DNA of 64,000 bases, taken from the IMG/VR virus record IMGVR_UViG_3300022752_000055, positions 1 through 64,000 of that record; one strand, written 5' to 3'. Position 1 is the stretch's first letter, and each line of letters begins with the position of its first letter. Below the pieces are notes generated by a model that ran no database searches, was not told where the DNA came from, and saw only the letters and a program-made list of their open reading frames with translations. Of the stretch, positions 1,027 to 57,100 are shown in pieces. Source of the DNA: a virus. The translations under genes and the position numbers were made by a program.

Positions 1027-3087
1027 ATGAATGAATTAATGGATGATGATGACAAAATGATGAATAAGAAAAAAACTTCATCAGATAGTGATACACCAGT
1101 ATTAGACAATTTCAGTAGGGATTTAATTAAACTTGCTGAAAAGGGTAAATTAGACCCGGTTATTGGTAGAGAAAAAGAAATTCTACGTATCGCACAGATT
1201 TTATCTCGTAGAAAGAAAAACAACCCAATTATTATTGGTGACCCGGGTTGTGGTAAGACCGCAATTGTTGAGGGATTGGCAATTAAAATTGTTAATGGTG
1301 ATTGTCCAAAAAACTTGGTAGATAAGAGGATTGTTGAACTTGATTTGACTTCAGTTGTTGCCGGAACAAAATACAGAGGACAATTTGAAGAAAGATTAAA
1401 GGTTATTATGGAAGAACTCCGAAGTAATCCAAACATTATTGTCTTTATTGACGAAATTCACACCTTGGTTGGTTCAGGAAACTCTTCAGGCTCAATGGAT
1501 GGTTCCAACATCTTTAAACCCGCCCTTGCTCGTGGAGAATTGCAATGTATTGGTGCGACAACCCTAAATGAGTTCAGAAAGAATATTGAAAAGGATGGGG
1601 CGTTAGAACGCAGATTCCAAAAAGTTATTGTTGAACCATCTTCTGTTTCAGAAACAATCACAATCCTTAAAAGTGCTCGTGAAAAATATGAAACATACCA
1701 TAAGGTAACCTATAGTGATGAAGTGATTGAAGCTTGTGTTAAACTTGCGGATAGATACATCACGGATAGAGGTTTTCCTGATAAAGCGTTTGACATTTTG
1801 GATGAAGTTGGGGCAAGAATGCAAACTGAACTAAAAGTTCCGGAAGAAATTGAGATATTGAAAAAGCAGGCAGCAGAATTAAAACAAATAAAGGTGGATG
1901 TTGTTAAAAGACAACAATACGAAAAAGCTGCAGAGTTAAGAGACAAGGAGAAAAAACTTATAGCCAAATTAGACGCCGAAAAGAAGAAGTTTGAAGAACA
2001 GATGCAAAAAGAAAAACAAAAAATATCTGTTGAAGATGTTTATTCTGTTGTATCAACAATGACAAACATTCCCGTAAGTAAAATGAACGTGGATGATAAT
2101 AAAGCGTTAATCAATCTTGATAAATCTTTGATTGATAAGGTTATAGGACAGAACAATGCGGTTATTAAGATTGCAAAATCAATTAAAAGAAACAGATTAG
2201 GTATCAAAGACCCAAATCGTCCAATCGGCTCATTCGTATTTCTTGGTTCAACCGGTGTTGGTAAGACATATCTCGCAAAACAACTTGCAAGAGAAATGTT
2301 TGGTAGTGAAGATTCACTTATCAGAGTTGATATGTCAGAATACCAAGAGAAACATAGTATATCAAAAATGTTAGGCACTACCGCTGGTTATGTTGGGTAT
2401 GATGATGGAGGATTTTTAACTGAAAAAGTAAAAAATAAACCATATTCTGTAATTTTATTTGACGAGGTTGAGAAGGCTCATAAAGACATATTCACAATAT
2501 TACTTCAAATTTTAGATGATGGGTATGTGACTGACGGACAAGGTAGAAAAATCAACTTCAAAAATACTTTAATCATTTTGACTTCAAATATCGGAGTTAA
2601 AAAATTACAGGACTTTGGAACAGGAATTGGTTTTAGCACAAATGCTTACAGCAATGAAGAAGCTAAAAAACAAATGTTAATGAAAGAAATGAAAAACTTT
2701 TTCTCTCCTGAATTTATCAATAGGATTGATGATACAATAGTATTCAACACATTAAATTCTGACGATATTAAAAAAATTACTAAAATTGAATTAGATAAGT
2801 TAATGGAAAGAATTAAAGGGATGAATTATACTTTCACATATGATGATAAATTGGTTGATTTAATACATAAAGTGGGGTATGATGAAACTTATGGAGCAAG
2901 ACCAATTAAAAGAGCAATTCAAGATAGGGTTGAGGATTACATCTCAGAAGAAATACTTAAAGGTATTGTTAAAGAAGGAGAATCTAGATTTATTGATGTT
3001 ATTGACGACCAATTAGTTTTGATTCAATCGCCCGAAGTAGAAGAGGAAACCAAGAAAAGAACAAGAAAAAAGAGAGGGGTTAATTAA
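1027..3087 (+). CDS. clpC: ClpC-type AAA+ unfoldase lacking the N-terminal Clp repeat domain
   Basis: Two AAA modules ([14 protein letters not shown]; [15 protein letters not shown]), UVR-like middle domain [14 protein letters not shown] ClpP-docking loop; the sequence starts just before NBD1. Confidence 0.93.
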
Positions 3088-7527: not shown

Positions 7528-7929
7528 GGGGTAGGTATAGGCATTTGATTTCAGACATCAAGGGTAAGTGGCACGTAGGAGCAGGATTAACTCCTTATAA
7601 TATGATTCAAACTTTAAATGGCAAAACCATTTCTAAACTTTCTACTCTTGGTCTTATCAGAGAAGAAAGTGTTGTAGCTGCTTAATTAGTAGAGTACGAC
7701 ATTCGGGCCGGTGCACATACGCCTAGGAACAGAAGTGCTCACAGTGTAACACCACTGTAGAGTGTTGGAGCACATCAGACGGCTCTTGAAAATCCGGTTT
7801 GGGGATTTTTGGAAGTGATTATCTTAATCTGTAACTTCCTATTTGTCAGTTGAGAACTAATTGAATAAACGTGTAGTCACTTATTTTTGAGTAGGAAAGA
7901 CCACGGTTCGAATCCGTGCTACTCCACCA
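7528..7929 (+). ncRNA. ssrA: tmRNA
   Basis: 5' GGGGTAG pairs with 3' CTACTCC-ACCA including G3:U; T-arm CACGG-TTCGAAT-CCGTG; internal tag ORF ending in AA-stop; TACATTTG promoter at 7500-7507. Confidence 0.95.
7620..7685 (+). other. tmRNA tag reading frame (A)GKTISKLSTLGLIREESVVAA
   Basis: TAAAT precedes the GGC resume codon; frame ends GCT GCT TAA. The resume point is inferred. Confidence 0.75.
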
Positions 7930-34270: not shown

Positions 34271-35005
34271 TTATGCCAACATTTCTGATGCATTTTTTAT
34301 TTTTCCCGGTCTAATTGTTCTCATAGCGTAAACCATATTGTCTAATTCTTCGGGATTAGTAATTCCCATACTAACAGAATCATTAACTTTTTTTGCAAAC
34401 TTTTTAAAATATCCAGGTCCATTCCAACTTGCATACGCAAAATTAAATAATAATTTAGGGTTGTTTTCAACAATACTTCTTGCCTCTTTTGATAAGAAAT
34501 TTTCAGCATTTTTCTTGTATTGTTCTTTCATAATTTTGCTAACAGAACTAATTAATTTATCTTTTAATTCTCCGCCAGTATAGTTATACGGCCATCTTCC
34601 ATTTTTTTGTGCGTTATCTATCATCGACCAAAACTCGGAACCACTATCTGATGTGTTAATTGTTCCCCCATGTTTTCTATCTATTCCAAACATGGTCTCA
34701 CCGCTTTTACCCATGGCGGTAAAACTTGAAGGAGACATATTTTTTCCTGATGTGCTTTTTGCTCCCGTAATTTTAAATTCGGGATGATAATACCCACCTT
34801 CCAAATTATTAATAATTGTTTTTGTAATTTCTTTAAATTTATCATCAACAATAGACCCGGTAACTTTTTTAGAAGATGTGGGTTCTACTGACTTTAATAA
34901 ATCTTTATCAACTAGTTTGTCCGAGAAATCACCTGAAAAGGCTCCCATCAATCCTTTTAATAAATCTTCAAGTTGGTCTTCACTTATTATTACGTTTTTT
35001 TTCAT
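34271..35005 (-). CDS. leader-bearing GH108-like lysozyme
   Basis: MKKNVIISEDQL leader; LEGGY...GETMFGI catalytic motif. Confidence 0.7.
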   Translation of the reverse strand: MKKNVIISEDQLEDLLKGLMGAFSGDFSDKLVDKDLLKSVEPTSSKKVTGSIVDDKFKEITKTIINNLEGGYYHPEFKITGAKSTSGKNMSPSSFTAMGKSGETMFGIDRKHGGTINTSDSGSEFWSMIDNAQKNGRWPYNYTGGELKDKLISSVSKIMKEQYKKNAENFLSKEARSIVENNPKLLFNFAYASWNGPGYFKKFAKKVNDSVSMGITNPEELDNMVYAMRTIRPGKIKNASEMLA

Positions 35006-35082
35006 ATACTTTGTTATTTTTTGATTGTCTCAATAATATAAATATAACACTAACCAAACATATTTATATAAAAAGAAAAACT

Positions 35083-36147
35083 ATTTCATCTGCAATTAAA
35101 ATATTATCATTAGAGGGTGTTCCACCATTTCAGGTTTATTCCTGTGATTACGCTTTAAATAATTGTCAACTTGTTGCAACATTAGAGAATCCGGTTCAAG
35201 CAATAAACGACATTATACTACCAAATCTTTTTGATAATTCACCAAACATAATTGTTAAAATTATTTCCTTTGATGGGTGTGAGACATTCACATTATTAAA
35301 TTGTGAGAATTTCCCAACACCAATGACAATGATTGTTGAGAGTCCTGATTCGTCAAATACCATATTTGAATTACCGTTAGTTAATGATGGTGTTTATGAT
35401 TTTGATGTTGATTGGGGTGATGGTACATCACAAAGAATCACTCAATGGGACGATGCAAATAAAGTTCATAATTATCCTGATAATGGTGAATATGAAATAA
35501 AAATATATATTAAAGAATTTACTGGTTGGAATTTTGCATACGCCGGGGTTCCTCAGGAGACAAAAAATAATCTAAAAAGTATTACAATAATTCCAAGTTT
35601 AGTTTTTACTGACATGGTAACCGCATTCACCAATTGTGAAAATTTGATTAGTTTTAATGGTACTCCAACATTTAGTGGTTCTACAGACTTAACCGATTTT
35701 TTCGCCAATTGTTACAGTTTAGAATCTGTTAATGGTATTTGGGATTTTAGTGGGGTTGAGAGTATTTCCTCATTCTTTTTTAATTGTAATTCCTTAACCG
35801 GAGGAACAATTAACGAATGGGGGTTGACAATGAATAATGTAAAATATGCATATAGTGTATTCGAAAATTGTTATTCATTTAATGGTGAATTAGATAAATG
35901 GAACATGAGTGGTGTGATATCAATGGGTACCATGTTTACCAATGCAGTATCATTTAATCAAGATATTGGAGGTTGGAATGTATCGGGAGTTACTGAAATG
36001 GATAGTATGTTCTACAATGCAACTTCATTTAATCAAGACCTAAGCGGTTGGTGCGTTACAAACATACCAACCGCTCCAGTAGATTTTGATGGTGAGGCAT
36101 TACTTTGGGTATTACCTAGACCGGTATGGGGAACATGCCCCACATAA
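35083..36147 (+). CDS. PKD plus BspA/DUF285 leucine-rich-repeat protein (start codon uncertain, possibly ATT)
   Basis: VDWGDG; FNQDIGGWNVSGVT and FNQDLSGWCV repeats; no ATG near the upstream TATTTATA motif. Confidence 0.75.
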   Translation: MSSAIKILSLEGVPPFQVYSCDYALNNCQLVATLENPVQAINDIILPNLFDNSPNIIVKIISFDGCETFTLLNCENFPTPMTMIVESPDSSNTIFELPLVNDGVYDFDVDWGDGTSQRITQWDDANKVHNYPDNGEYEIKIYIKEFTGWNFAYAGVPQETKNNLKSITIIPSLVFTDMVTAFTNCENLISFNGTPTFSGSTDLTDFFANCYSLESVNGIWDFSGVESISSFFFNCNSLTGGTINEWGLTMNNVKYAYSVFENCYSFNGELDKWNMSGVISMGTMFTNAVSFNQDIGGWNVSGVTEMDSMFYNATSFNQDLSGWCVTNIPTAPVDFDGEALLWVLPRPVWGTCPT

Positions 36148-36531
36148 TTATTTAACTCTAGTTTTCAAATATTTTTCTAAGGGCATATCTGAGGGTTTGA
36201 TAGGGCTCCATTCTTTCTCACTATCTTTATCCCATCTTGTACCGGCACCAATACCAAAATCACTTTGTCTATTATTTCTTGTATGTGATTTTAATTTCAT
36301 TTTATTTTGAAATTCATCATCATCGTTGTACTTGTCTTCAATATCAAAATCAAAGTCTTTAATATAATTGATATCATCATTATCATCATCATTATCATCA
36401 TCAAATAACGATGGTTCATCTTCAAGTGGAGTATCAAATCCTTCAAACTCTATATCTTCATTATTTTCTTTAACTATTCTATTTACCAATCTAATTAATT
36501 CGGTTTCAGTTAATCTTATTATTTTACTCAT
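36148..36531 (-). CDS. leader-bearing acidic protein (class A)
   Basis: MSKIIRLTETELIRLVNRIVKE. Confidence 0.75.
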   Translation of the reverse strand: MSKIIRLTETELIRLVNRIVKENNEDIEFEGFDTPLEDEPSLFDDDNDDDNDDINYIKDFDFDIEDKYNDDDEFQNKMKLKSHTRNNRQSDFGIGAGTRWDKDSEKEWSPIKPSDMPLEKYLKTRVK

Positions 36532-36566
36532 AATTTTTTATTTATTAATAAATATCATTAATAACG

Positions 36567-36680
36567 TTATTTATGAGTTAAAATTTCATATATAACTTGA
36601 ATGGTTATACCAAATAATACGGACGCAACCGCAAATATTACAAAATATATCAATCCAATATCCCAATTATTTTTTTTCAT
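36567..36680 (-). CDS. small membrane peptide
   Basis: MKKNNWDIGLIYFVIFAVASVLFGITIQVIYEILTHK. Confidence 0.5.
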   Translation of the reverse strand: MKKNNWDIGLIYFVIFAVASVLFGITIQVIYEILTHK

Positions 36681-36694
36681 TTTTATTAAATTTT

Positions 36695-37279
36695 TTATTT
36701 TATCACGAAAAATGATGTAGGTGTCACTTCCCCCAAGTTTATTTGCTCTTGTATCCAATCAAAAGAGGCACTTACAACTTGACGAGGTGTTATTTCCTCC
36801 GATTTTAATTGTTCTTCCACCACTTTTAGATGATAAGTACTTAAAGTCACATTAGGTTTTATTTCCACATATTTTACCGAGTCTAACTTTCTCCAACTAG
36901 ATGGTGGTGCTATGGCACATCTTGGTGTTACTTCCTCCTTTTCTAAATCACGCCAAATTTGTGTTGGTATTGACTCTTTTGGTGTTATTTCCTCCCGATT
37001 TAATCTTAGCTCCGCCAATTGGCAAATGAGATTCACATCTTTAACGGGTTTTATTTCCACCGATTTTAATTCTTCTTGCACCCTCATCAATTGATTTGTA
37101 ATACTGGTATGTGGTATAACTTCCTCTGATTTTAATTGTTTTTCCATAAATGGAAGGTAGTTTCTTCCAGCGTCCAAAGGTGTAACTTCCTCCGATTTTA
37201 ATTCTTCTTCCACAACCACAAATGAAAGTGGTTTATCCCATTTAGGTGTCACTTCCCCCGATTTTATTTGTTGTTCCAT
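36695..37279 (-). CDS. ORF made entirely of the repeat-spacer array, in frame with 37280-37579
   Basis: Nine units of the form (M/V)E(Q/E)(Q/E)(I/L)KSxE(V/I)TP plus ~10 variable residues; translation not demonstrated. Confidence 0.5.
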   Translation of the reverse strand: MEQQIKSGEVTPKWDKPLSFVVVEEELKSEEVTPLDAGRNYLPFMEKQLKSEEVIPHTSITNQLMRVQEELKSVEIKPVKDVNLICQLAELRLNREEITPKESIPTQIWRDLEKEEVTPRCAIAPPSSWRKLDSVKYVEIKPNVTLSTYHLKVVEEQLKSEEITPRQVVSASFDWIQEQINLGEVTPTSFFVIK

Positions 37280-37346
37280 CTATGAGTCTGAAGTGAAACC
37301 ATTAGCAATAGGTGTCACTTCCCCCGATTTTATTTGTTGTTCCATC
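36720..37346. repeat. CRISPR-like array: 10 degenerate ~36-nt repeats with ~30-nt unique spacers, in coding frame
   Basis: Repeat GGTGTCACTTCCCCCGATTTTATTTGTTGTTCCATC and variants start at 36720, 36786, 36855, 36924, 36981, 37047, 37113, 37179, 37245 and 37311. Confidence 0.9.
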
Positions 37347-37579
37347 CATTCTTTTATAAGTTGTTGGGTTTCTTCGTAATCATAGGAAAACATATCGGAG
37401 ATGTCAGTCCAAACTGAATATAAAACCCATAATGTTCCGGACTTTTCCAATTCTAATATTACCTTATCATTCTTTTTAAAAAAAATAGAGTCAGGATAAA
37501 ATTTTGATTTAACCGAATACATATTTTCAAACAAATAATTCAAAAACTTAAACTCACTTTTTCTTATTTTATCTTTCAT
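37280..37579 (-). CDS. hypothetical protein whose C-terminus is the first array repeat plus the first spacer
   Basis: Paralog of 55400-55732 (FK[FY]L.YLFE.M...IF.KKND...W.DIS.MFS.DY.ETQ.L..EW); ends in TAG. Confidence 0.8.
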   Translation of the reverse strand: MKDKIRKSEFKFLNYLFENMYSVKSKFYPDSIFFKKNDKVILELEKSGTLWVLYSVWTDISDMFSYDYEETQQLIKEWMEQQIKSGEVTPIANGFTSDS

Positions 37580-37745
37580 TTTTTTTAATTAACGAATACA
37601 AATATAATAATAAATCCCATAACAATCAAAATAATATTACATTATGTTTAACCATTCTATTAAAGGTTCCGCGCTGATAGTATCTTCCGTCATTATAATT
37701 ACCATTATCTTTCAACCACCTTAAAACACTATTTAACTTCTTCAT
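37569..37745 (-). CDS. small membrane protein (not in the ORF track)
   Basis: MKKLNSVLRWLKDNG...VIILIVMGFIIYLYSLIKKNER; overlaps both neighbours. Confidence 0.5.
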
Positions 37746-38307
37746 CTTTTTTTATTTTTAAATCACCCAAACTACTATTAGCAAGTTGGTCATCAAAATC
37801 CTTATACCCAAGAGATTGTGCGTATTCGTCATTCTTCTTTTTATAGAACTCCCTTTTGGTTTCGTTATCATTTAACTTATCTTCCGGTATTCCAAGTTCT
37901 TCAGCAACCGCCGCACGACATTGAGCCATAGTTCCCATCTCTATATTGATTGGTAAATCAGTTTCTATATTCTCTATGAACTGCTCAAATTGGTTTGCGG
38001 CTTCAAATGGCATACAATACACACCCTCATCTACCTGATAACCACTATCGTTCTGTCTATCGAATATCTCAACCCTACCCATTCTATATCTTTCTCCAAG
38101 CAAACTATACACACCATACCCTACGGTAGAATAATAATACCTACCTGAACGATTACTCTCATCCATATTAACACAACCCGGGTTTACTTCCATATAACCG
38201 GCAAGTTCGTTAGCCAAATACTCATTGGTGAGTTCTATACCATCCCTTTCAGCTTTGCGAGTGATGTTCTCTAAAAACCATTTTATATCTTGTCTTTTAA
38301 CTTTCAT
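37729..38307 (-). CDS. hypothetical protein
   Basis: 192-aa ORF; TATATTTG promoter at 38312-38319. Confidence 0.8.
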   Translation of the reverse strand: MKVKRQDIKWFLENITRKAERDGIELTNEYLANELAGYMEVNPGCVNMDESNRSGRYYYSTVGYGVYSLLGERYRMGRVEIFDRQNDSGYQVDEGVYCMPFEAANQFEQFIENIETDLPINIEMGTMAQCRAAVAEELGIPEDKLNDNETKREFYKKKNDEYAQSLGYKDFDDQLANSSLGDLKIKKDEEVK

Positions 38308-38464
38308 AGGGCAAATATAATACTATTTTTTGGATTTTGGAAATAATTTTAAAAGAATAAACATAATCCCAAATGGTATTAAACAACTTATAACGATACC
38401 AAGTAAACCTAATAATAAATTTTTCACATATAATATATAGTTATTTTTATTATATTTATAAAGT

Positions 38465-38806
38465 ATGAAATACCTCATTAACGAAAGTAAATTGGTAAAA
38501 TTGATTGGGAAATATATAGAGGCAAGATATCCTGAATTAATGAGGCTTGAATCTAGAAAAGTGTTCCATCAAGGAACCGGACATTACGGAAATATATTTT
38601 TTGACCCATCTCAAAGAAGTAATGTTTTTATGTATTGGTTTTATAATCCATATGATGTTAATTCCACTGAATTATTTCCCGAACTACAATTAAACGGAGA
38701 AATATTTAACGATATTGAAGAGACATTTGGTGAGGAAAATATGGGATATGTCCTTGATTGGTTTAATAAAACTTTTGGATTGGAAGCACAGAGTATAACA
38801 TTTTAA
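38465..38806 (+). CDS. leader-bearing hypothetical protein (class B)
   Basis: MKYLINESKL. Confidence 0.75.
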   Translation: MKYLINESKLVKLIGKYIEARYPELMRLESRKVFHQGTGHYGNIFFDPSQRSNVFMYWFYNPYDVNSTELFPELQLNGEIFNDIEETFGEENMGYVLDWFNKTFGLEAQSITF

Positions 38807-54594: not shown

Positions 54595-55014
54595 ATGAAA
54601 TATATAATAACTGAGGAACAATTAAAAGGTATTAACAAAACAATTATTAAACTGATTGATACTGAAGGTATTTTTAAGGCTATTGATGTTGTTGGTGATT
54701 ATGATACCCTTAAAGAACTATTGGGTGATTATGAAATACCTAGACAACTTAAGATTGATACTATAAAAGAATTTATGAGTCAGAGAGCAGCAACCGGATT
54801 TCACCTCGGTGAATTTGATGAAGAACCAATACCTTATTTTGAAAATAATGATGGCTATCATCAAATTGAATATTTGGGACCATCAAAAGCAATAATTAAT
54901 GTGTGGGGTGGTTATAATGGTCAAACTGATTTGGGTGAATATGGAGTATCTTATGGAGATTTACCTGAAAAGTCATTAGATGACATAATCGAAATGTTAA
55001 TCAACCATTACTAA
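54595..55014 (+). CDS. leader-bearing hypothetical protein (class B)
   Basis: MKYIITEEQL. Confidence 0.8.
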   Translation: MKYIITEEQLKGINKTIIKLIDTEGIFKAIDVVGDYDTLKELLGDYEIPRQLKIDTIKEFMSQRAATGFHLGEFDEEPIPYFENNDGYHQIEYLGPSKAIINVWGGYNGQTDLGEYGVSYGDLPEKSLDDIIEMLINHY

Positions 55015-55397
55015 TGAAATATATAATAGACGATTTTAGTGAAGAGCAATTAATGAAAATTATTCGTAAATTTGTTCGTCACATATACGGAAAAGATTTA
55101 ACTATGGTTGAGGATAGTGAAAGATATATTAAATTCTTTTCAGTTGGACCGGTACCACCATACCATAGAAATATGGCGGGTCGCTTATGGGTTTATGATG
55201 ATAGATTAATAAACATAATTATGGACTTTTTTTCAACCGATTACGACCAAGCACTTGGTTTGGTTGCATTCTATTTCTCAAACAAATATGACATTAAAAT
55301 AATGGATGCCAAAGTTCCATCTCACGTATTTTTTGGTAAAATAGATTATTCACGATTTGACGATGAGAATTACCATATTGAAGATGATGAAGATTAA
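55014..55397 (+). CDS. leader-bearing hypothetical protein (class B variant)
   Basis: MKYIIDDFSEEQL. Confidence 0.75.
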   Translation: MKYIIDDFSEEQLMKIIRKFVRHIYGKDLTMVEDSERYIKFFSVGPVPPYHRNMAGRLWVYDDRLINIIMDFFSTDYDQALGLVAFYFSNKYDIKIMDAKVPSHVFFGKIDYSRFDDENYHIEDDED

Positions 55398-55399
55398 TT

Positions 55400-55732
55400 A
55401 TGAAATATATTATAACAGAAAATAGTTTAAGGAGAGTTCAGTTTAAGTATTTGGATTACTTATTTGAGGGTATGCATGTAATTAAAATGCTTTCACCGGA
55501 TGATAATATATTTTCAGGGCCTAATGCAATATTTTGGAAAAAAAATGATAGTATATTATTGGTACTTAGAATTCGCGAAAAAAATAAATTAGAAGTTACA
55601 TATCCAATTTGGGAAGATATATCCAATATGTTTTCATTGGATTATTATGAAACTCAGGAACTTATGGAAGAATGGGCGGAACAACGTTTGGGGGTGGGAA
55701 AAGTCAAAGCCGCATCGGTTGATTTTTTTTAA
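55400..55732 (+). CDS. leader-bearing paralog of the array-carrying gene
   Basis: MKYIITENSL; body aligns by eye to 37280-37579. Confidence 0.8.
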   Translation: MKYIITENSLRRVQFKYLDYLFEGMHVIKMLSPDDNIFSGPNAIFWKKNDSILLVLRIREKNKLEVTYPIWEDISNMFSLDYYETQELMEEWAEQRLGVGKVKAASVDFF

Positions 55733-55744
55733 TAAATTAAAATT

Positions 55745-56044
55745 ATGAAATACATTATAACGGAAGAACAAAACTATTATTTAAGAAGATTACGTATTAT
55801 TGATAATTTAATTAAAAGTTCTCTTGAAATGTTTGATTTATGGGGAATTAAAAAAATAGATGTTGATTATATGATTAAATTTCTCACAACAGATGTTACT
55901 GAATCTTATTTTTTTAAATTCAGTGACGACATTTATGTTGGCGGTGAGGAATATGATGAATTAACCGATTTTGTTGAATCGTATTTAAATAGTAGTTGGA
56001 GAGATAAACTTGAAAAAATAATAAAAAGTAAGAAAGGAAAATGA
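55745..56044 (+). CDS. leader-bearing RR-family protein
   Basis: MKYIITEEQNYYLRRL. Confidence 0.8.
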   Translation: MKYIITEEQNYYLRRLRIIDNLIKSSLEMFDLWGIKKIDVDYMIKFLTTDVTESYFFKFSDDIYVGGEEYDELTDFVESYLNSSWRDKLEKIIKSKKGK

Positions 56045-56352
56045 AATACGTTATAACTGAAGAACAACAAAAAAGTTTAAAAAACCATATGTTAGAACTT
56101 TTAAATTATAGTTTTAAAGATAGTAATATTGTTTGTGAAATAAAAGTAACCGATGTTGAAGAAGATGATGATGATTATAACGACGGATTAAGATATGATA
56201 TTTACGTTTTCATTAACTCCTCGTTCACTAGAGCTGTCGGCATTTACGGATATAAAGTTGCAACACAAAGAAAAATAGATTCCTTAATGGAAGATTGGTT
56301 TGGATTAAATAAAAACGAATATTACGTTTCAATTTCCGCTAAAGATTGTTAA
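56041..56352 (+). CDS. leader-bearing hypothetical protein
   Basis: MKYVITEEQ. Confidence 0.8.
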   Translation: MKYVITEEQQKSLKNHMLELLNYSFKDSNIVCEIKVTDVEEDDDDYNDGLRYDIYVFINSSFTRAVGIYGYKVATQRKIDSLMEDWFGLNKNEYYVSISAKDC

Positions 56353-56353
56353 T

Positions 56354-56731
56354 ATGAAATACATTATAACTGAAGAACAAAATTTAAGATTATTCAAAAT
56401 AATGGAGAATCTTATGTTAGAAAAATTTCCTGAACTTGAATTTCCTTTAGTAAAAAAGAATATTCCATCAATAAGTAATCGTGGATATGGCTCATCTTTA
56501 GATGACTATTATCTAATTACAACATCATACAAAGATGAAGATGGTGAAACTTGGTTTAAAGAATTTGATGGTAGAGACCTTTACCAAGATTCCAAATGGG
56601 AAGTTAATGATAAATTAGAATTACTTCTTGATACGTTTGATGAAGAGTTTTTTATGGATTTCGTCAAACATTATTTTAACATAGACCTTAGAGAAAAAGG
56701 TAATAAAAAATATGATTGGGTTTTTAGATAA
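56354..56731 (+). CDS. leader-bearing hypothetical protein
   Basis: MKYIITEEQ. Confidence 0.8.
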   Translation: MKYIITEEQNLRLFKIMENLMLEKFPELEFPLVKKNIPSISNRGYGSSLDDYYLITTSYKDEDGETWFKEFDGRDLYQDSKWEVNDKLELLLDTFDEEFFMDFVKHYFNIDLREKGNKKYDWVFR

Positions 56732-56740
56732 TTATACAAT

Positions 56741-57100
56741 ATGAAATACATTATAACAGAAGACAAATTAAAAAAGTTTCTAAAAAGACAATTTGGAGTT
56801 GATTTGACCGGTGATGTTGAAATGATTACTTCAGTTCATCAAATTCCTTCAGTATTTGCTAGATTCTTCAGCACAAGTGAAATTACTCGTCATTTGAACC
56901 ATTATGGACCAATGTATACAGTAAGAATAAATAAGACTGGTGAAACGTTTTTAATTCAGGATAAAGGTGGTAATGAGTTGTATATTTATACAAGCCTTGG
57001 TTATAGAATTAATGAAGAAATTTTTTTTGAAAGGATTGGAATGGAACCTATTATATCTGTTATGGATTTGATAGACCAATATTATAAAGAGGAAGATTAA
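56741..57100 (+). CDS. leader-bearing hypothetical protein
   Basis: MKYIITEDKL. Confidence 0.8.
   Translation: MKYIITEDKLKKFLKRQFGVDLTGDVEMITSVHQIPSVFARFFSTSEITRHLNHYGPMYTVRINKTGETFLIQDKGGNELYIYTSLGYRINEEIFFERIGMEPIISVMDLIDQYYKEED

Follow-up and report, generated by a model that had tools for sequence, protein, structure and literature searches.

The window, a stretch of 64,000 nucleotides (positions 1 to 64,000 of IMG/VR virus record IMGVR_UViG_3300022752_000055), comes from an uncultured lake jumbo phage and contains, on the minus strand at 36695-37579, a small gene whose 3' part is a CRISPR-like array and yet keeps a reading frame of the translated type. The gene encodes an 88-residue folded domain followed by ten repeat units, whose repeats start (in plus-strand numbering) at 36720, 36786, 36855, 36924, 36981, 37047, 37113, 37179, 37245, and 37311, with periods of 66, 69, 69, 57, 66, 66, 66, 66, and 66 nt. 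The repeats are 36 nt long, and seven of the nine intervals hold 30-nt inserts; the 57- and 69-nt periods stem from a 9-nt deletion and a 3-nt insertion within repeats plus one 33-nt insert. Alignment of the units bore out what the sequence-only reading had described, namely ten repeats of ~36 nt with these periods, unrelated spacers of ~30 nt, and a contrast between identical proximal and decayed distal repeats. The two gene-proximal copies (37245-37280 and 37311-37346) are identical at 36 of 36 positions (98% over a 41-nt register), whereas the distal copies are 63-80% identical to this pair. The inserts of the window, compared with one another and with young inserts elsewhere, show ~10-33% mutual identity, which is the level of chance and not what duplication of whole units leaves behind, the exceptions being certain cassettes that are duplicated in homologues. 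Tandem Repeats Finder reported nothing over 36695-37579, since the inserts lack similarity to one another. A scan for promoter-like sites (12 compared with 8.5 expected) and terminator-like sites (one, within the next gene) was uninformative.

Read from its start, the gene begins with the folded N-terminal domain (37347-37579, up to the invariant Trp-78), which would serve as the leader of the array if units are added by integration. Repeat 1 (37311-37346), the first base of which is the third base of the Trp-78 codon, encodes MEQQIKSGEVTP, the end of the last helix of the domain. It is followed by insert 1 (37281-37310, 30 nt), the youngest unit, with the peptide IANGFTSDS and TA as its last two bases; by repeat 2 (37245-37280), the exact copy of repeat 1; and by insert 2 (37215-37244, 30 nt, peptide KWDKPLSFVV). 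The IANGFTSDS peptide occurs in none of the 60 homologues that we split into units, and the peptide of insert 2 is likewise absent from them. The older units (36720-37214) comprise repeats 3-10, at 37179-37214, 37113-37148, 37047-37082, 36981-37016, 36924-36950 (27 nt), 36855-36893 (39 nt), 36786-36821, and 36720-36755, and carry the cassettes LDAGRNYLPF, HTSITNQLMR, VKDVNLICQL, KESIPTQIW, RCAIAPPSSW, NVTLSTYHLKV, and RQVVSASFDW, which reappear in homologues in varying number and order; the distal part of this segment is 92.7% identical to locus L002.

The last two bases of insert 1 (TA) and the first base of repeat 2 (G) form an in-frame TAG at 37280-37282, as had been noted at first reading. 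This stop splits a frame of 293 codons into a 99-aa ORF (37280-37579) and, in the same frame, a 194-aa ORF (36695-37279) that starts at the ATG of repeat 2 directly after the TAG and ends with the tail TSFFVIK, common to many homologues, and a TAA. The 99-aa product is the domain plus 10 new residues and ends, as expected from the earlier claim that repeat 1 encodes its C terminus, in ...EW-MEQQIKSGEVTP-IANGFTSDS-TAG. The TAG is real: contigs that bridge it (from 37243 or 37251 to 37338) carry it with no differences in all four of four runs from four studies, two of which may be the source sample. The runs X3 and X4 have no contig over 37339-37606 at a likeness of at least 88%, a gap that carries no weight. 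We note that the TAG is one base away from the TGG found at the equivalent place before repeat 1, and a plain point mutation therefore fits it equally well.

We considered whether this phage, by recoding or with a suppressor, reads the TAG as an amino acid and makes a single protein of 293 residues. The frame is indeed open on either side of the TAG, and homologues have a sense codon there, often with Trp or a hydrophobic residue before the repeat. However, treating TAG as a sense codon lengthens the ORFs of the window little (their sum rises from 21,008 to 23,373 aa, and the longest ORFs are unchanged), and in the whole record only four TAG junctions have open segments of 60 codons or more on both sides, which is not above the numbers for TGA or TAA. 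Further, the tRNAs in the 72-kb record are a tRNA-Trp(CCA), a Met, and an Arg tRNA, and none is a suppressor. This record is ~25% of the phage genome, and the tRNA and recoding results cover that part. With no genome-wide sign and no suppressor tRNA within the 72-kb record, we rejected global recoding of TAG and regard readthrough as highly improbable.

The domain is conserved in 200 cluster representatives (E ≤ 0.001) and is under purifying selection (pN/pS of about 0.13-0.3). AlphaFold2 predicts residues 1-88 with a pLDDT of 70-84, as a helix at 2-16, four strands, and helices at 54-64 and 68-85; the array region, represented by the 194-aa ORF, is predicted to be disordered (pLDDT < 50). The best match of the domain in the PDB (Z of 5.9) is the winged-helix part of DpnI, with an rmsd of 3.4 over 66 residues, and many of the further matches, at Z of 4-5, are winged-helix and homeodomain proteins. 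Because Z scores of 5.9 and below are too low, we rejected a fold call from these matches. The matches in BFVD are all uncharacterized proteins of uncultured phages. The window also contains a paralogue of the domain (55400-55732, plus strand; 42% identity over 96 aa), which has a single equivalent of the repeat and no array, with no second repeat copy downstream (best match 15/36).

One alternative is an ordinary protein tandem repeat. According to this explanation, a 22-residue unit (helix plus linker) was expanded by unequal crossing-over, its 12-residue core was maintained by selection together with gene conversion over no more than the homologous 36 nt, and its 10-residue linkers drifted; stops and odd insert lengths, including the TAG, would be pseudogenizing mutations, and the one-base step from TGG to TAG suits this. 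The 60 homologues are uninterrupted ORFs of 172-379 aa, and the frame is protected: over 13 loci, which share cassettes and are hence non-independent, the array frame has five stops in 2,051 codons compared with 56-249 in the other five frames. Cassettes are conserved at the protein level across orthologues, as in the LDAG unit (pS of 0.12-0.60, pN of 0-0.08); differences within shared segments are most numerous at third codon positions (194/235/351 at the first, second, and third); and some units, namely the AIAPP, RQVV, and DCNF units, are clear duplicates that have diverged like ordinary repeats. The sequence-only reading had listed spacers conserved as protein across orthologues among several signs that would together mark an ordinary tandem repeat. 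Several are so conserved, yet evidence at the DNA level still speaks against that explanation. In the distal array, pN is about equal to pS (in the distal 225 nt, between the window and L003, pN is 0.051 and pS 0.04, with nine nonsynonymous and two synonymous changes), in contrast to the domain (pN of 0.09, pS of 0.44), and the tail, as noted, is predicted to be disordered.

Evidence also comes from the youngest units. The inserts flanked by perfect repeats are unlike each other and unlike the ~40 cassette types seen elsewhere, although the adjacent LDAG unit of the same array is 85% identical between lineages. At L013 there are seven repeats, six identical and one with a single change, separated by six unrelated 30-nt inserts of 17-57% GC, and L012, L014, and L011 each have two perfect or near-perfect proximal repeats. 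The lengths of 27 young inserts are narrowly set (30 nt in 20, 29 nt in six, and 31 nt in one), whether or not the frame survives. In G001, a complete 309-kb related jumbo phage with arrays at 275, 292, and 308 kb, the 275-kb array has three perfect repeats and inserts of 29, 29, and 31 nt, and the frame is therefore lost; three length changes with zero substitutions in the repeats are unlikely as independent indels. Similarly, L012 has three stops, two of them adjacent, in its two youngest inserts, and its repeats are perfect. Overall, the youngest units break the frame in three of 16 array-bearing genes read at the DNA level. Comparison of the window, L013, L012, L014, L011, the G001 arrays, and the cassettes of homologues indicates that these arrays grow in a polarized manner, at the gene-proximal end: homologues whose domains are almost alike share a conserved distal end and differ at the proximal one. 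We note that cassette order differs between homologues and is not always colinear, and polar addition and deletion alone thus cannot explain it. Repeats that are identical up to sharp edges could also be maintained by gene conversion acting on the repeats alone. Taking these observations with the origin of one insert and the kinship of a sister repeat described below, we consider an ordinary tandem repeat to be an unlikely explanation.

The sequence-only reading had looked to phage and host genomes as sources of the spacers. For the window array, no protospacer was found in 401 Flavobacterium, 401 Chitinophagaceae, 401 Bacteroidia, and five other genomes, where the best matches lay in repeats or straddled insert edges, or in 50,697 phage records, where the best match (E of 0.02) lay off the insert edges. 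The central 24 nt of insert 1 had no match in IMG/VR, and the array compared with the phage's own 72 kb gave only repeat-like matches. By contrast, a Chitinophagaceae gene of PF05635 aligns with insert 4 of L013 at 28 of 30 positions, the match spanning the 30 nt of the insert exactly, and a second genome does so at 27 of 30 (E of 1.5e-5 per genome, with 401 genomes searched; the family-wise chance is about 0.006). This insert is an antisense piece of the bacterial gene, such that its mRNA-sense strand is complementary to the mRNA of that gene, and no homologue of the PF05635 gene was found in the phage DNA examined. It is the one insert with such a match among the six young inserts of L013. 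A 26/30 match of insert 1 of L012 is a candidate protospacer and is not significant. The L013 array compared with phage records gave chance-level matches, insert 3 of L013 had no match in IMG/VR, and the 308-kb array of G001 compared with its own genome gave only 14-nt chance matches.

In agreement with the first reading, which had seen no cas gene in the window, no Cas family was found among the ORFs searched with Pfam (20 ORFs), PHROGs (20), and PADLOC (10), overlapping sets that cover part of the 50 window ORFs of at least 150 aa. No Cas1 scored above the cut-off in G001, which is 100% complete, or in G002; a Cas1 candidate, a 586-aa ORF of G001 with 13 bits, was rejected because its E value on rescan was 0.074. 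We also rejected a phage type V system based on a TnpB/Cas12f-like ORF beside the 292-kb array of G001. Just upstream of this ORF we read a domain-like remnant cut after its Trp, and an IS-type insertion between gene and array is thus the simpler explanation; searches of G000 and G002 did not find the ORF.

The repeats of a sister array do have a recognizable relative. The 292-kb array of G001 has a GTTG...CAAC repeat that is identical at 31 of 36 positions to repeats of Chryseobacterium and Sphingobacterium arrays, and at four such host arrays the neighbouring ORFs encode Cas13b (PADLOC E of 1e-46 to 3e-261). The same G001 repeat is also similar to the repeats within the coding sequences of two paralogues of that phage (z of 6-7, p ≤ 0.0005 compared with shuffles). 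For the window copy, the likeness to known CRISPR families is partial. On the one hand, its repeats rank 6th to 27th of 144,182 genome 36-mers against a profile of 61 host type VI-B repeats, in the exact register (repeat 1 ranks 27th in the sense and 7th in the antisense orientation), and its inserts of ~30 nt have the length of type VI-B spacers. On the other hand, the profile scores are -11 to -16 bits, far below those of true repeats; identity to 42 host repeats, all of one motif class, is 18-20 of 36; the ends are GATG...CACC rather than GTTG...CAAC; and the Rfam CRISPR repeat families had no match at E ≤ 1 over 36000-38500. Around the 292-kb array of G001, Rfam gave chance-level matches only. 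Further, the window repeat forms no hairpin in either orientation (-0.1 kcal/mol sense and -0.2 kcal/mol antisense, compared with -7.3 and -9.2 kcal/mol for host repeats), and its folding is weaker than that of 198 (sense) and 190 (antisense) of 200 shuffles.

This kinship raises the question of whether the array works mainly as RNA, with an mRNA that bears Cas13b-type repeats in the crRNA orientation and either feeds host Cas13b with guides chosen by the phage or sequesters it by acting as a repeat decoy (an RNA anti-CRISPR), translation merely guarding the transcript from an early end. Such an explanation concerns function and is compatible with growth of the integrase type. It draws on the sister-array repeats, which are akin to type VI-B repeats and have the same orientation as cas13b relative to host arrays; on a frame kept open despite weak distal amino acid constraint and a disordered tail; and on insert 4 of L013 with its complementarity to a bacterial mRNA. 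Viruses are also known to carry single repeats and mini-arrays with which they exploit host Cas proteins or block them (PMC11656645, PMC10651486). Against it stand the missing hairpin, the low profile scores, and the absence of an Rfam match for the window repeat. In addition, the repeats of paralogues within one phage differ by up to 40%, which is hard to fit to a single Cas protein, and the antisense sense of one insert is a coin toss. We consider a mainly RNA-level role quite unlikely. A working Cas-less mini-array or decoy RNA, one of the earlier suggestions, is not supported for the window copy because no protospacer, cas gene, or repeat hairpin was found for it.

Among the closest known systems are type VI-B arrays. 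As described for Flavobacterium columnare in PMC8092290, these have 36-nt repeats and ~30-nt spacers, add spacers at one end, lack their own cas1/cas2 and acquire spacers in trans through type II-C Cas1/2, take many spacers from the host's own genome, and have the GTTGT-type end of the repeat away from the leader. In the phage arrays, the GTTGT or GGTGT end likewise lies away from the gene. Unlike in type VI-B arrays, however, the first repeat here is the end of a coding sequence, the "leader" is a gene, the array is an open and presumably translated frame, and the repeat tracks the protein sequence of each paralogue; in the window, the repeat also lacks the hairpin and most of the consensus, and no cas13b is nearby. 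Viral mini-arrays and solitary repeat units (PMC11656645, PMC10651486) are likewise Cas-less, borne by viruses, and related to host CRISPR repeats. Described mini-arrays carry repeats identical to those of the host, have one or two spacers that target related viruses, and do not code for protein, whereas the window array has ten units, diverged repeats, no detected target, and an ORF; the terms "protein-coding," "open reading frame," and "Cas13" do not occur in the text of the review PMC11656645.

Ordinary tandem-repeat proteins share in-frame units, a unit number that varies between alleles, recombination between cores, and disorder with the phage family, in which, in contrast, the variable parts are unrelated, are 29-31 nt long regardless of frame, sometimes contain stops, and in one case are foreign DNA. 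In ectopic integration, a non-CRISPR sequence is duplicated around an integrated spacer and seeds an array; such "neo-CRISPR" integration by Cas1-Cas2 at non-canonical sites was reportedly observed by Nivala et al. in 2018. The duplication around the spacer would be the same here, but neo-CRISPR events are sporadic, lie in bacterial chromosomes, and are non-coding, whereas many phage lineages repeatedly use the same codons of one gene family, and the outcome would be a translated product. A full-text literature search returned no description of translated CRISPR-type arrays.

The array is probably neither an ordinary protein repeat nor a working Cas-associated array. We think it reasonably probable that the arrays grow at the gene-proximal repeat by integration of the CRISPR type, probably with a host Cas1-Cas2 supplied in trans, and that units which leave the frame intact are kept. 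The 3' 36 nt that encode the C-terminal helix of the ~88-residue domain would act as the first repeat, and new units would enter there by staggered-cut integration of the Cas1-Cas2 type, each event duplicating the 36-nt repeat and inserting ~30 nt of captured DNA. The integrase would most likely be the adaptation complex of a Bacteroidota host, working in trans as on type VI-B arrays. Because 36 plus 30 nt make 66 nt, or 22 codons, most insertions would be in frame; those free of stops would lengthen the disordered tail and be retained, and the older units would diverge and then be reshuffled by recombination between repeats. In the window, the newest insert would have brought a terminal TA that formed TAG with the G of the repeat, so that the gene would now give the 99-aa product and a separate 194-aa ORF. 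The proposal of the sequence-only reading that the gene end is an integrase substrate and the gene body its leader gains partial support from the CRISPR geometry, the perfect proximal and diverged distal repeats, the insert lengths of 29-31 nt (with stops or a lost frame in some), and the conserved distal end. Its corollary that each event adds a new C terminus did not hold up; a unit instead enters between the folded domain and the older units, and a new unit is thus an internal 22-residue module or, as here, a truncation.

To our knowledge, no CRISPR type other than that of Cas13b would be expected to endanger jumbo phages that are shielded. A fuller account, which we advance tentatively and as somewhat short of an even chance, has the CRISPR adaptation complex of a bacterium inserting captured DNA in 66-nt steps within the coding frames of jumbo-phage genes that end in codons mimicking a Cas13b-type repeat. 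The phage would keep the insertions that stay open, and a polarized, heritable record of captured DNA, in the manner of CRISPR, would thereby be translated as a growing disordered tail; the window would capture an event just after it broke the gene, and this mimicry could have originated in an RNA that served as a decoy for Cas13b.

If addition of the Cas1-Cas2 type is correct, the family would be a natural case in which CRISPR spacer capture on a virus genome makes protein-coding sequence, and thus a new way for peptide modules to arise de novo and for proteins to diversify. The family would likewise constitute a natural, in-frame "molecular recorder," would illustrate how a stretch of codons can at once be a CRISPR repeat, and could point to a jumbo-phage countermeasure against RNA-targeting Cas13b. 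If the arrays are ordinary repeats after all, the family would still be a striking case of concerted evolution with nucleotide-sharp edges.

The window (30% G+C) is phage DNA that encodes an endolysin, an HNH endonuclease, an endonuclease VII, a peptidase, a ClpB-like ATPase and three tRNAs, and, because its parent IMG/VR record of 72,126 nt is rated 25% complete by CheckV, the source genome is put at roughly 300 kb, that of a jumbo phage. We noted a putative tmRNA (ARAGORN; 7528-7929, plus strand; tag peptide GKTISKLSTLGLIREESVVAA), a 686-aa double-AAA+ ClpA/ClpB-type ATPase (1027-3087, plus strand; PF07724, E 5e-66; PHROG 4871, E 1e-232) and a 423-aa ORF with DUF285 repeats (34876-36147, plus strand; PF03382, E 6e-31; weak PKD match), which overlaps the end of an opposite-strand ORF at 34271-35005.

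The array occupies a minus-strand gene that starts as a 99-aa ORF (37579-37280) and, past a single TAG, stays open in the same frame for 194 further codons, to 36695. The ten repeat units described in the sequence-only reading were reproduced exactly in position and period, and at the DNA level a regular unit joins 36 nt of repeat to 30 nt of insert (numbered here from the gene-proximal, youngest end). Repeat 1 (37346-37311, minus strand) opens with the final base of the Trp78 codon, and its product, MEQQIKSGEVTP, closes the last N-terminal-domain helix; repeat 2 (37280-37245, minus strand) matches it at every base. In the TAG, two bases come from the end of insert 1 and the third is the start of repeat 2. 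This stop is not an assembly error, because contig pieces bridge it without differences in all four runs examined (four studies, 2011-2019; two runs may represent the source sample), and the truncated allele persists across samples. Two independent runs, X3 and X4, gave identical contigs over the array and the upstream gene and, at 88% likeness or more, no contig over the domain-coding part (37339-37606); this gap could reflect a different domain allele on the same array or filtering.

Of 2,018 candidates, 60 are homologues (E ≤ 0.01) of the protein read through the TAG; all are uninterrupted ORFs, 172-379 aa long, from lake and freshwater metagenomes and up to 79% identical over their full length. 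Scanned without a profile, 1.84 billion cluster representatives gave 200 relatives at E ≤ 0.001, and since these are mostly about 100-130 aa long and match residues 1-95 only, the basic form of the family is the domain with a single repeat-equivalent; one such paralogue lies at 55400-55732, and the 99-aa product equals this basic form plus ten residues. AlphaFold2 (34-row alignment) gave a pLDDT of 70-84 for residues 1-88 and below 50 for residues 89-294, so the array is predicted to encode a disordered tail. Across 13 loci, the array reading frame contains 5 stops in 2,051 codons, against 56-249 stops in the other five frames; the five comprise the window TAG, three stops in the related locus L012 and the natural stop of L012, included by segment overrun. 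Uneven amino-acid constraint also speaks against an ordinary repeat: the domain has a pN/pS of about 0.13-0.3 and the LDAG unit also displays amino-acid constraint, whereas pN about equals pS over the distal 225 nt (nine nonsynonymous and two synonymous differences between the window and the related locus L003; domain pS 0.44). Differences per codon position number 194/235/351. The reading frame is protected, the encoded residues only weakly so. The sequence-only reading listed inserts conserved at the protein level among the signs of an ordinary protein repeat, and many insert-encoded cassettes (LDAGSNYLPF, HTSITNQLMR, VKDVNLICQL, RSAIAPPFRW and NVPLSTYHLK) do recur among homologues, which points that way, but the DNA-level evidence argues against it.

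This evidence comes from the nucleotide sequences of 16 array-bearing genes: that of the window, 12 from metagenome or viral loci and three from G001, a complete relative of 309,177 nt. Another G001 array, the fourth from that genome, lies at 292 kb and was also read. Proximal units combine identical 36-nt repeats with unrelated inserts. In L013, seven repeats (six identical, one with a single change) surround six inserts of 17-57% G+C, and the closing Pro codon varies at its third base, making the repeat edges nucleotide-sharp. Young inserts measure 30 nt in 20 of 27 cases, 29 nt in six and 31 nt in one, a mix that makes insert length independent of reading frame. In the G001 275-kb gene, all three repeats are perfect, the inserts measure 29, 29 and 31 nt and the ORF ends after the first insert; every one of the tandem single-domain paralogues L015-L017 terminates in a repeat, a 29/30-nt insert and a truncated repeat, which explains their odd out-of-frame tails. 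L012 carries three stops within its two youngest inserts, which lie between perfect repeats; overall, breaks fall in the youngest units of 3 of the 16 genes and in the old units of none. Homologues with near-identical domains have distal cassettes in common and differ at the proximal end. The array thus appears not to be an ordinary protein repeat, and such a repeat under concerted evolution, the reading that the recurrent cassettes would favor, is improbable.

We further noted a 338-aa G001 protein (L054:9539-10555, L054 being part of G001; G001:289539-290555, minus strand) with a diverged domain copy and about ten units whose core differs (V/I-x-x-G-V-K-E/K-T) and whose linkers vary; it looks like an old representative of this architecture that has diverged strongly. 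Two picks of a periodicity scan (G001:81239-81435 and 164232-164539) were rejected as ordinary linkers, being Pro/Thr-rich low-complexity tandem repeats with periods of 48-72 nt in large ORFs. Many small, otherwise unrelated ORFs begin with MKYIITE(E/S)Q or similar (window 38465, 40237, 54595-57100 and others; L016, L017), frequently in tandem, and in tandem sets the gene ends in a repeat, an insert and a truncated repeat abutting the next start codon.

Exactly the 30 nt of L013 insert 4 match a Chitinophagaceae gene for a PF05635 (23S rRNA-intervening-sequence) protein at 28 of 30 positions, and a second genome at 27 of 30, with bacterial flanks unlike the phage repeats; E is 1.5e-5 per genome, or about 0.006 family-wise over 401 genomes. 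No homologue of this gene was found in the phage DNA examined. Insert 1 of L012, a second protospacer candidate, matched at 26 of 30 positions, which is not significant. The nine window inserts yielded no protospacer, either in 1,208 bacterial genomes or in phage records, nor did insert 1 in IMG/VR.

In the G001 array at 292.0 kb, the 36-nt repeat has the form GTTG...CAAC and the inserts measure 30 and 29 nt. Across GTDB genomes, a motif from this repeat had over 120 matches; among those first examined, 42 loci are real arrays because at least three matches are spaced about 66 nt apart. Almost all are in Bacteroidota, including Ferruginibacter, Flavobacterium, Chryseobacterium and Segatella buccae, and the ORFs next to four of them are Cas13b (PADLOC E 1e-46 to 3e-261). 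The G001 repeat agrees with Chryseobacterium/Sphingobacterium repeats at 31 of 36 positions (17 fixed by the motif, 14 of the 19 free ones) and, in gene sense, resembles the coding repeats of the G001 275- and 305-kb paralogues (z 6.2-6.9, p ≤ 0.0005) and not the window repeat (z 0.6). With 61 host repeats as the profile, the window repeats rank 6th-27th (sense) and 7th-9th (antisense) among the record's 144,182 36-mers, in exact register, with a negative score that comes mostly from motif columns; the window repeat has probably diverged widely from all host repeats. It is oriented to its gene as in F. columnare arrays, in which the GTTGT end is leader-distal. According to PMC8092290, type VI-B (Cas13b) loci of F. 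columnare that lack cas1/cas2 receive spacers in trans from II-C Cas1/2, many of them derived from the genome of the host itself. A role at the RNA level, supplying Cas13b guides or acting as a decoy, is an alternative account of function, weak for the window copy because its repeat formed no hairpin upon folding.

Between a 36/30 array of G001 and a 92-aa ORF resembling a domain-family gene cut just past its Trp lies a 443-aa TnpB/Cas12f-like ORF (L054:12452-13783; G001:292452-293783, minus strand; PADLOC Cas12f E 1.7e-31; PF07282 E 2.5e-20). It is probably an IS-type insertion at the gene-array junction; a type V link is conceivable. Three short stretches (G001:291315-291410, 295097-295210 and 295690-295788) resemble its first about 40 codons (E 4e-10 to 5e-4) and may represent a recurring element of DNA or RNA, not protein.

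Integrase-type unit addition at the gene-end repeat is the best-supported account. We infer the integrase; no Cas1 was found in G001, and the parts of the literature searched held no description of such translated arrays. The last 36 coding nucleotides of the family would act as a CRISPR-type first repeat, at which integrase-type events would add new units; the window TAG may stem from the last such event or from a later G-to-A change in a possible former TGG. Cassette order is non-colinear among homologues, and a 45-nt HTSIT unit is the same in five loci with domains that differ at 13-49% of their synonymous sites, which together argue for repeat-repeat exchange. Most additions would keep the frame, and so survive, because a unit spans 22 codons, and old units would diverge and then be shuffled by repeat-repeat recombination.
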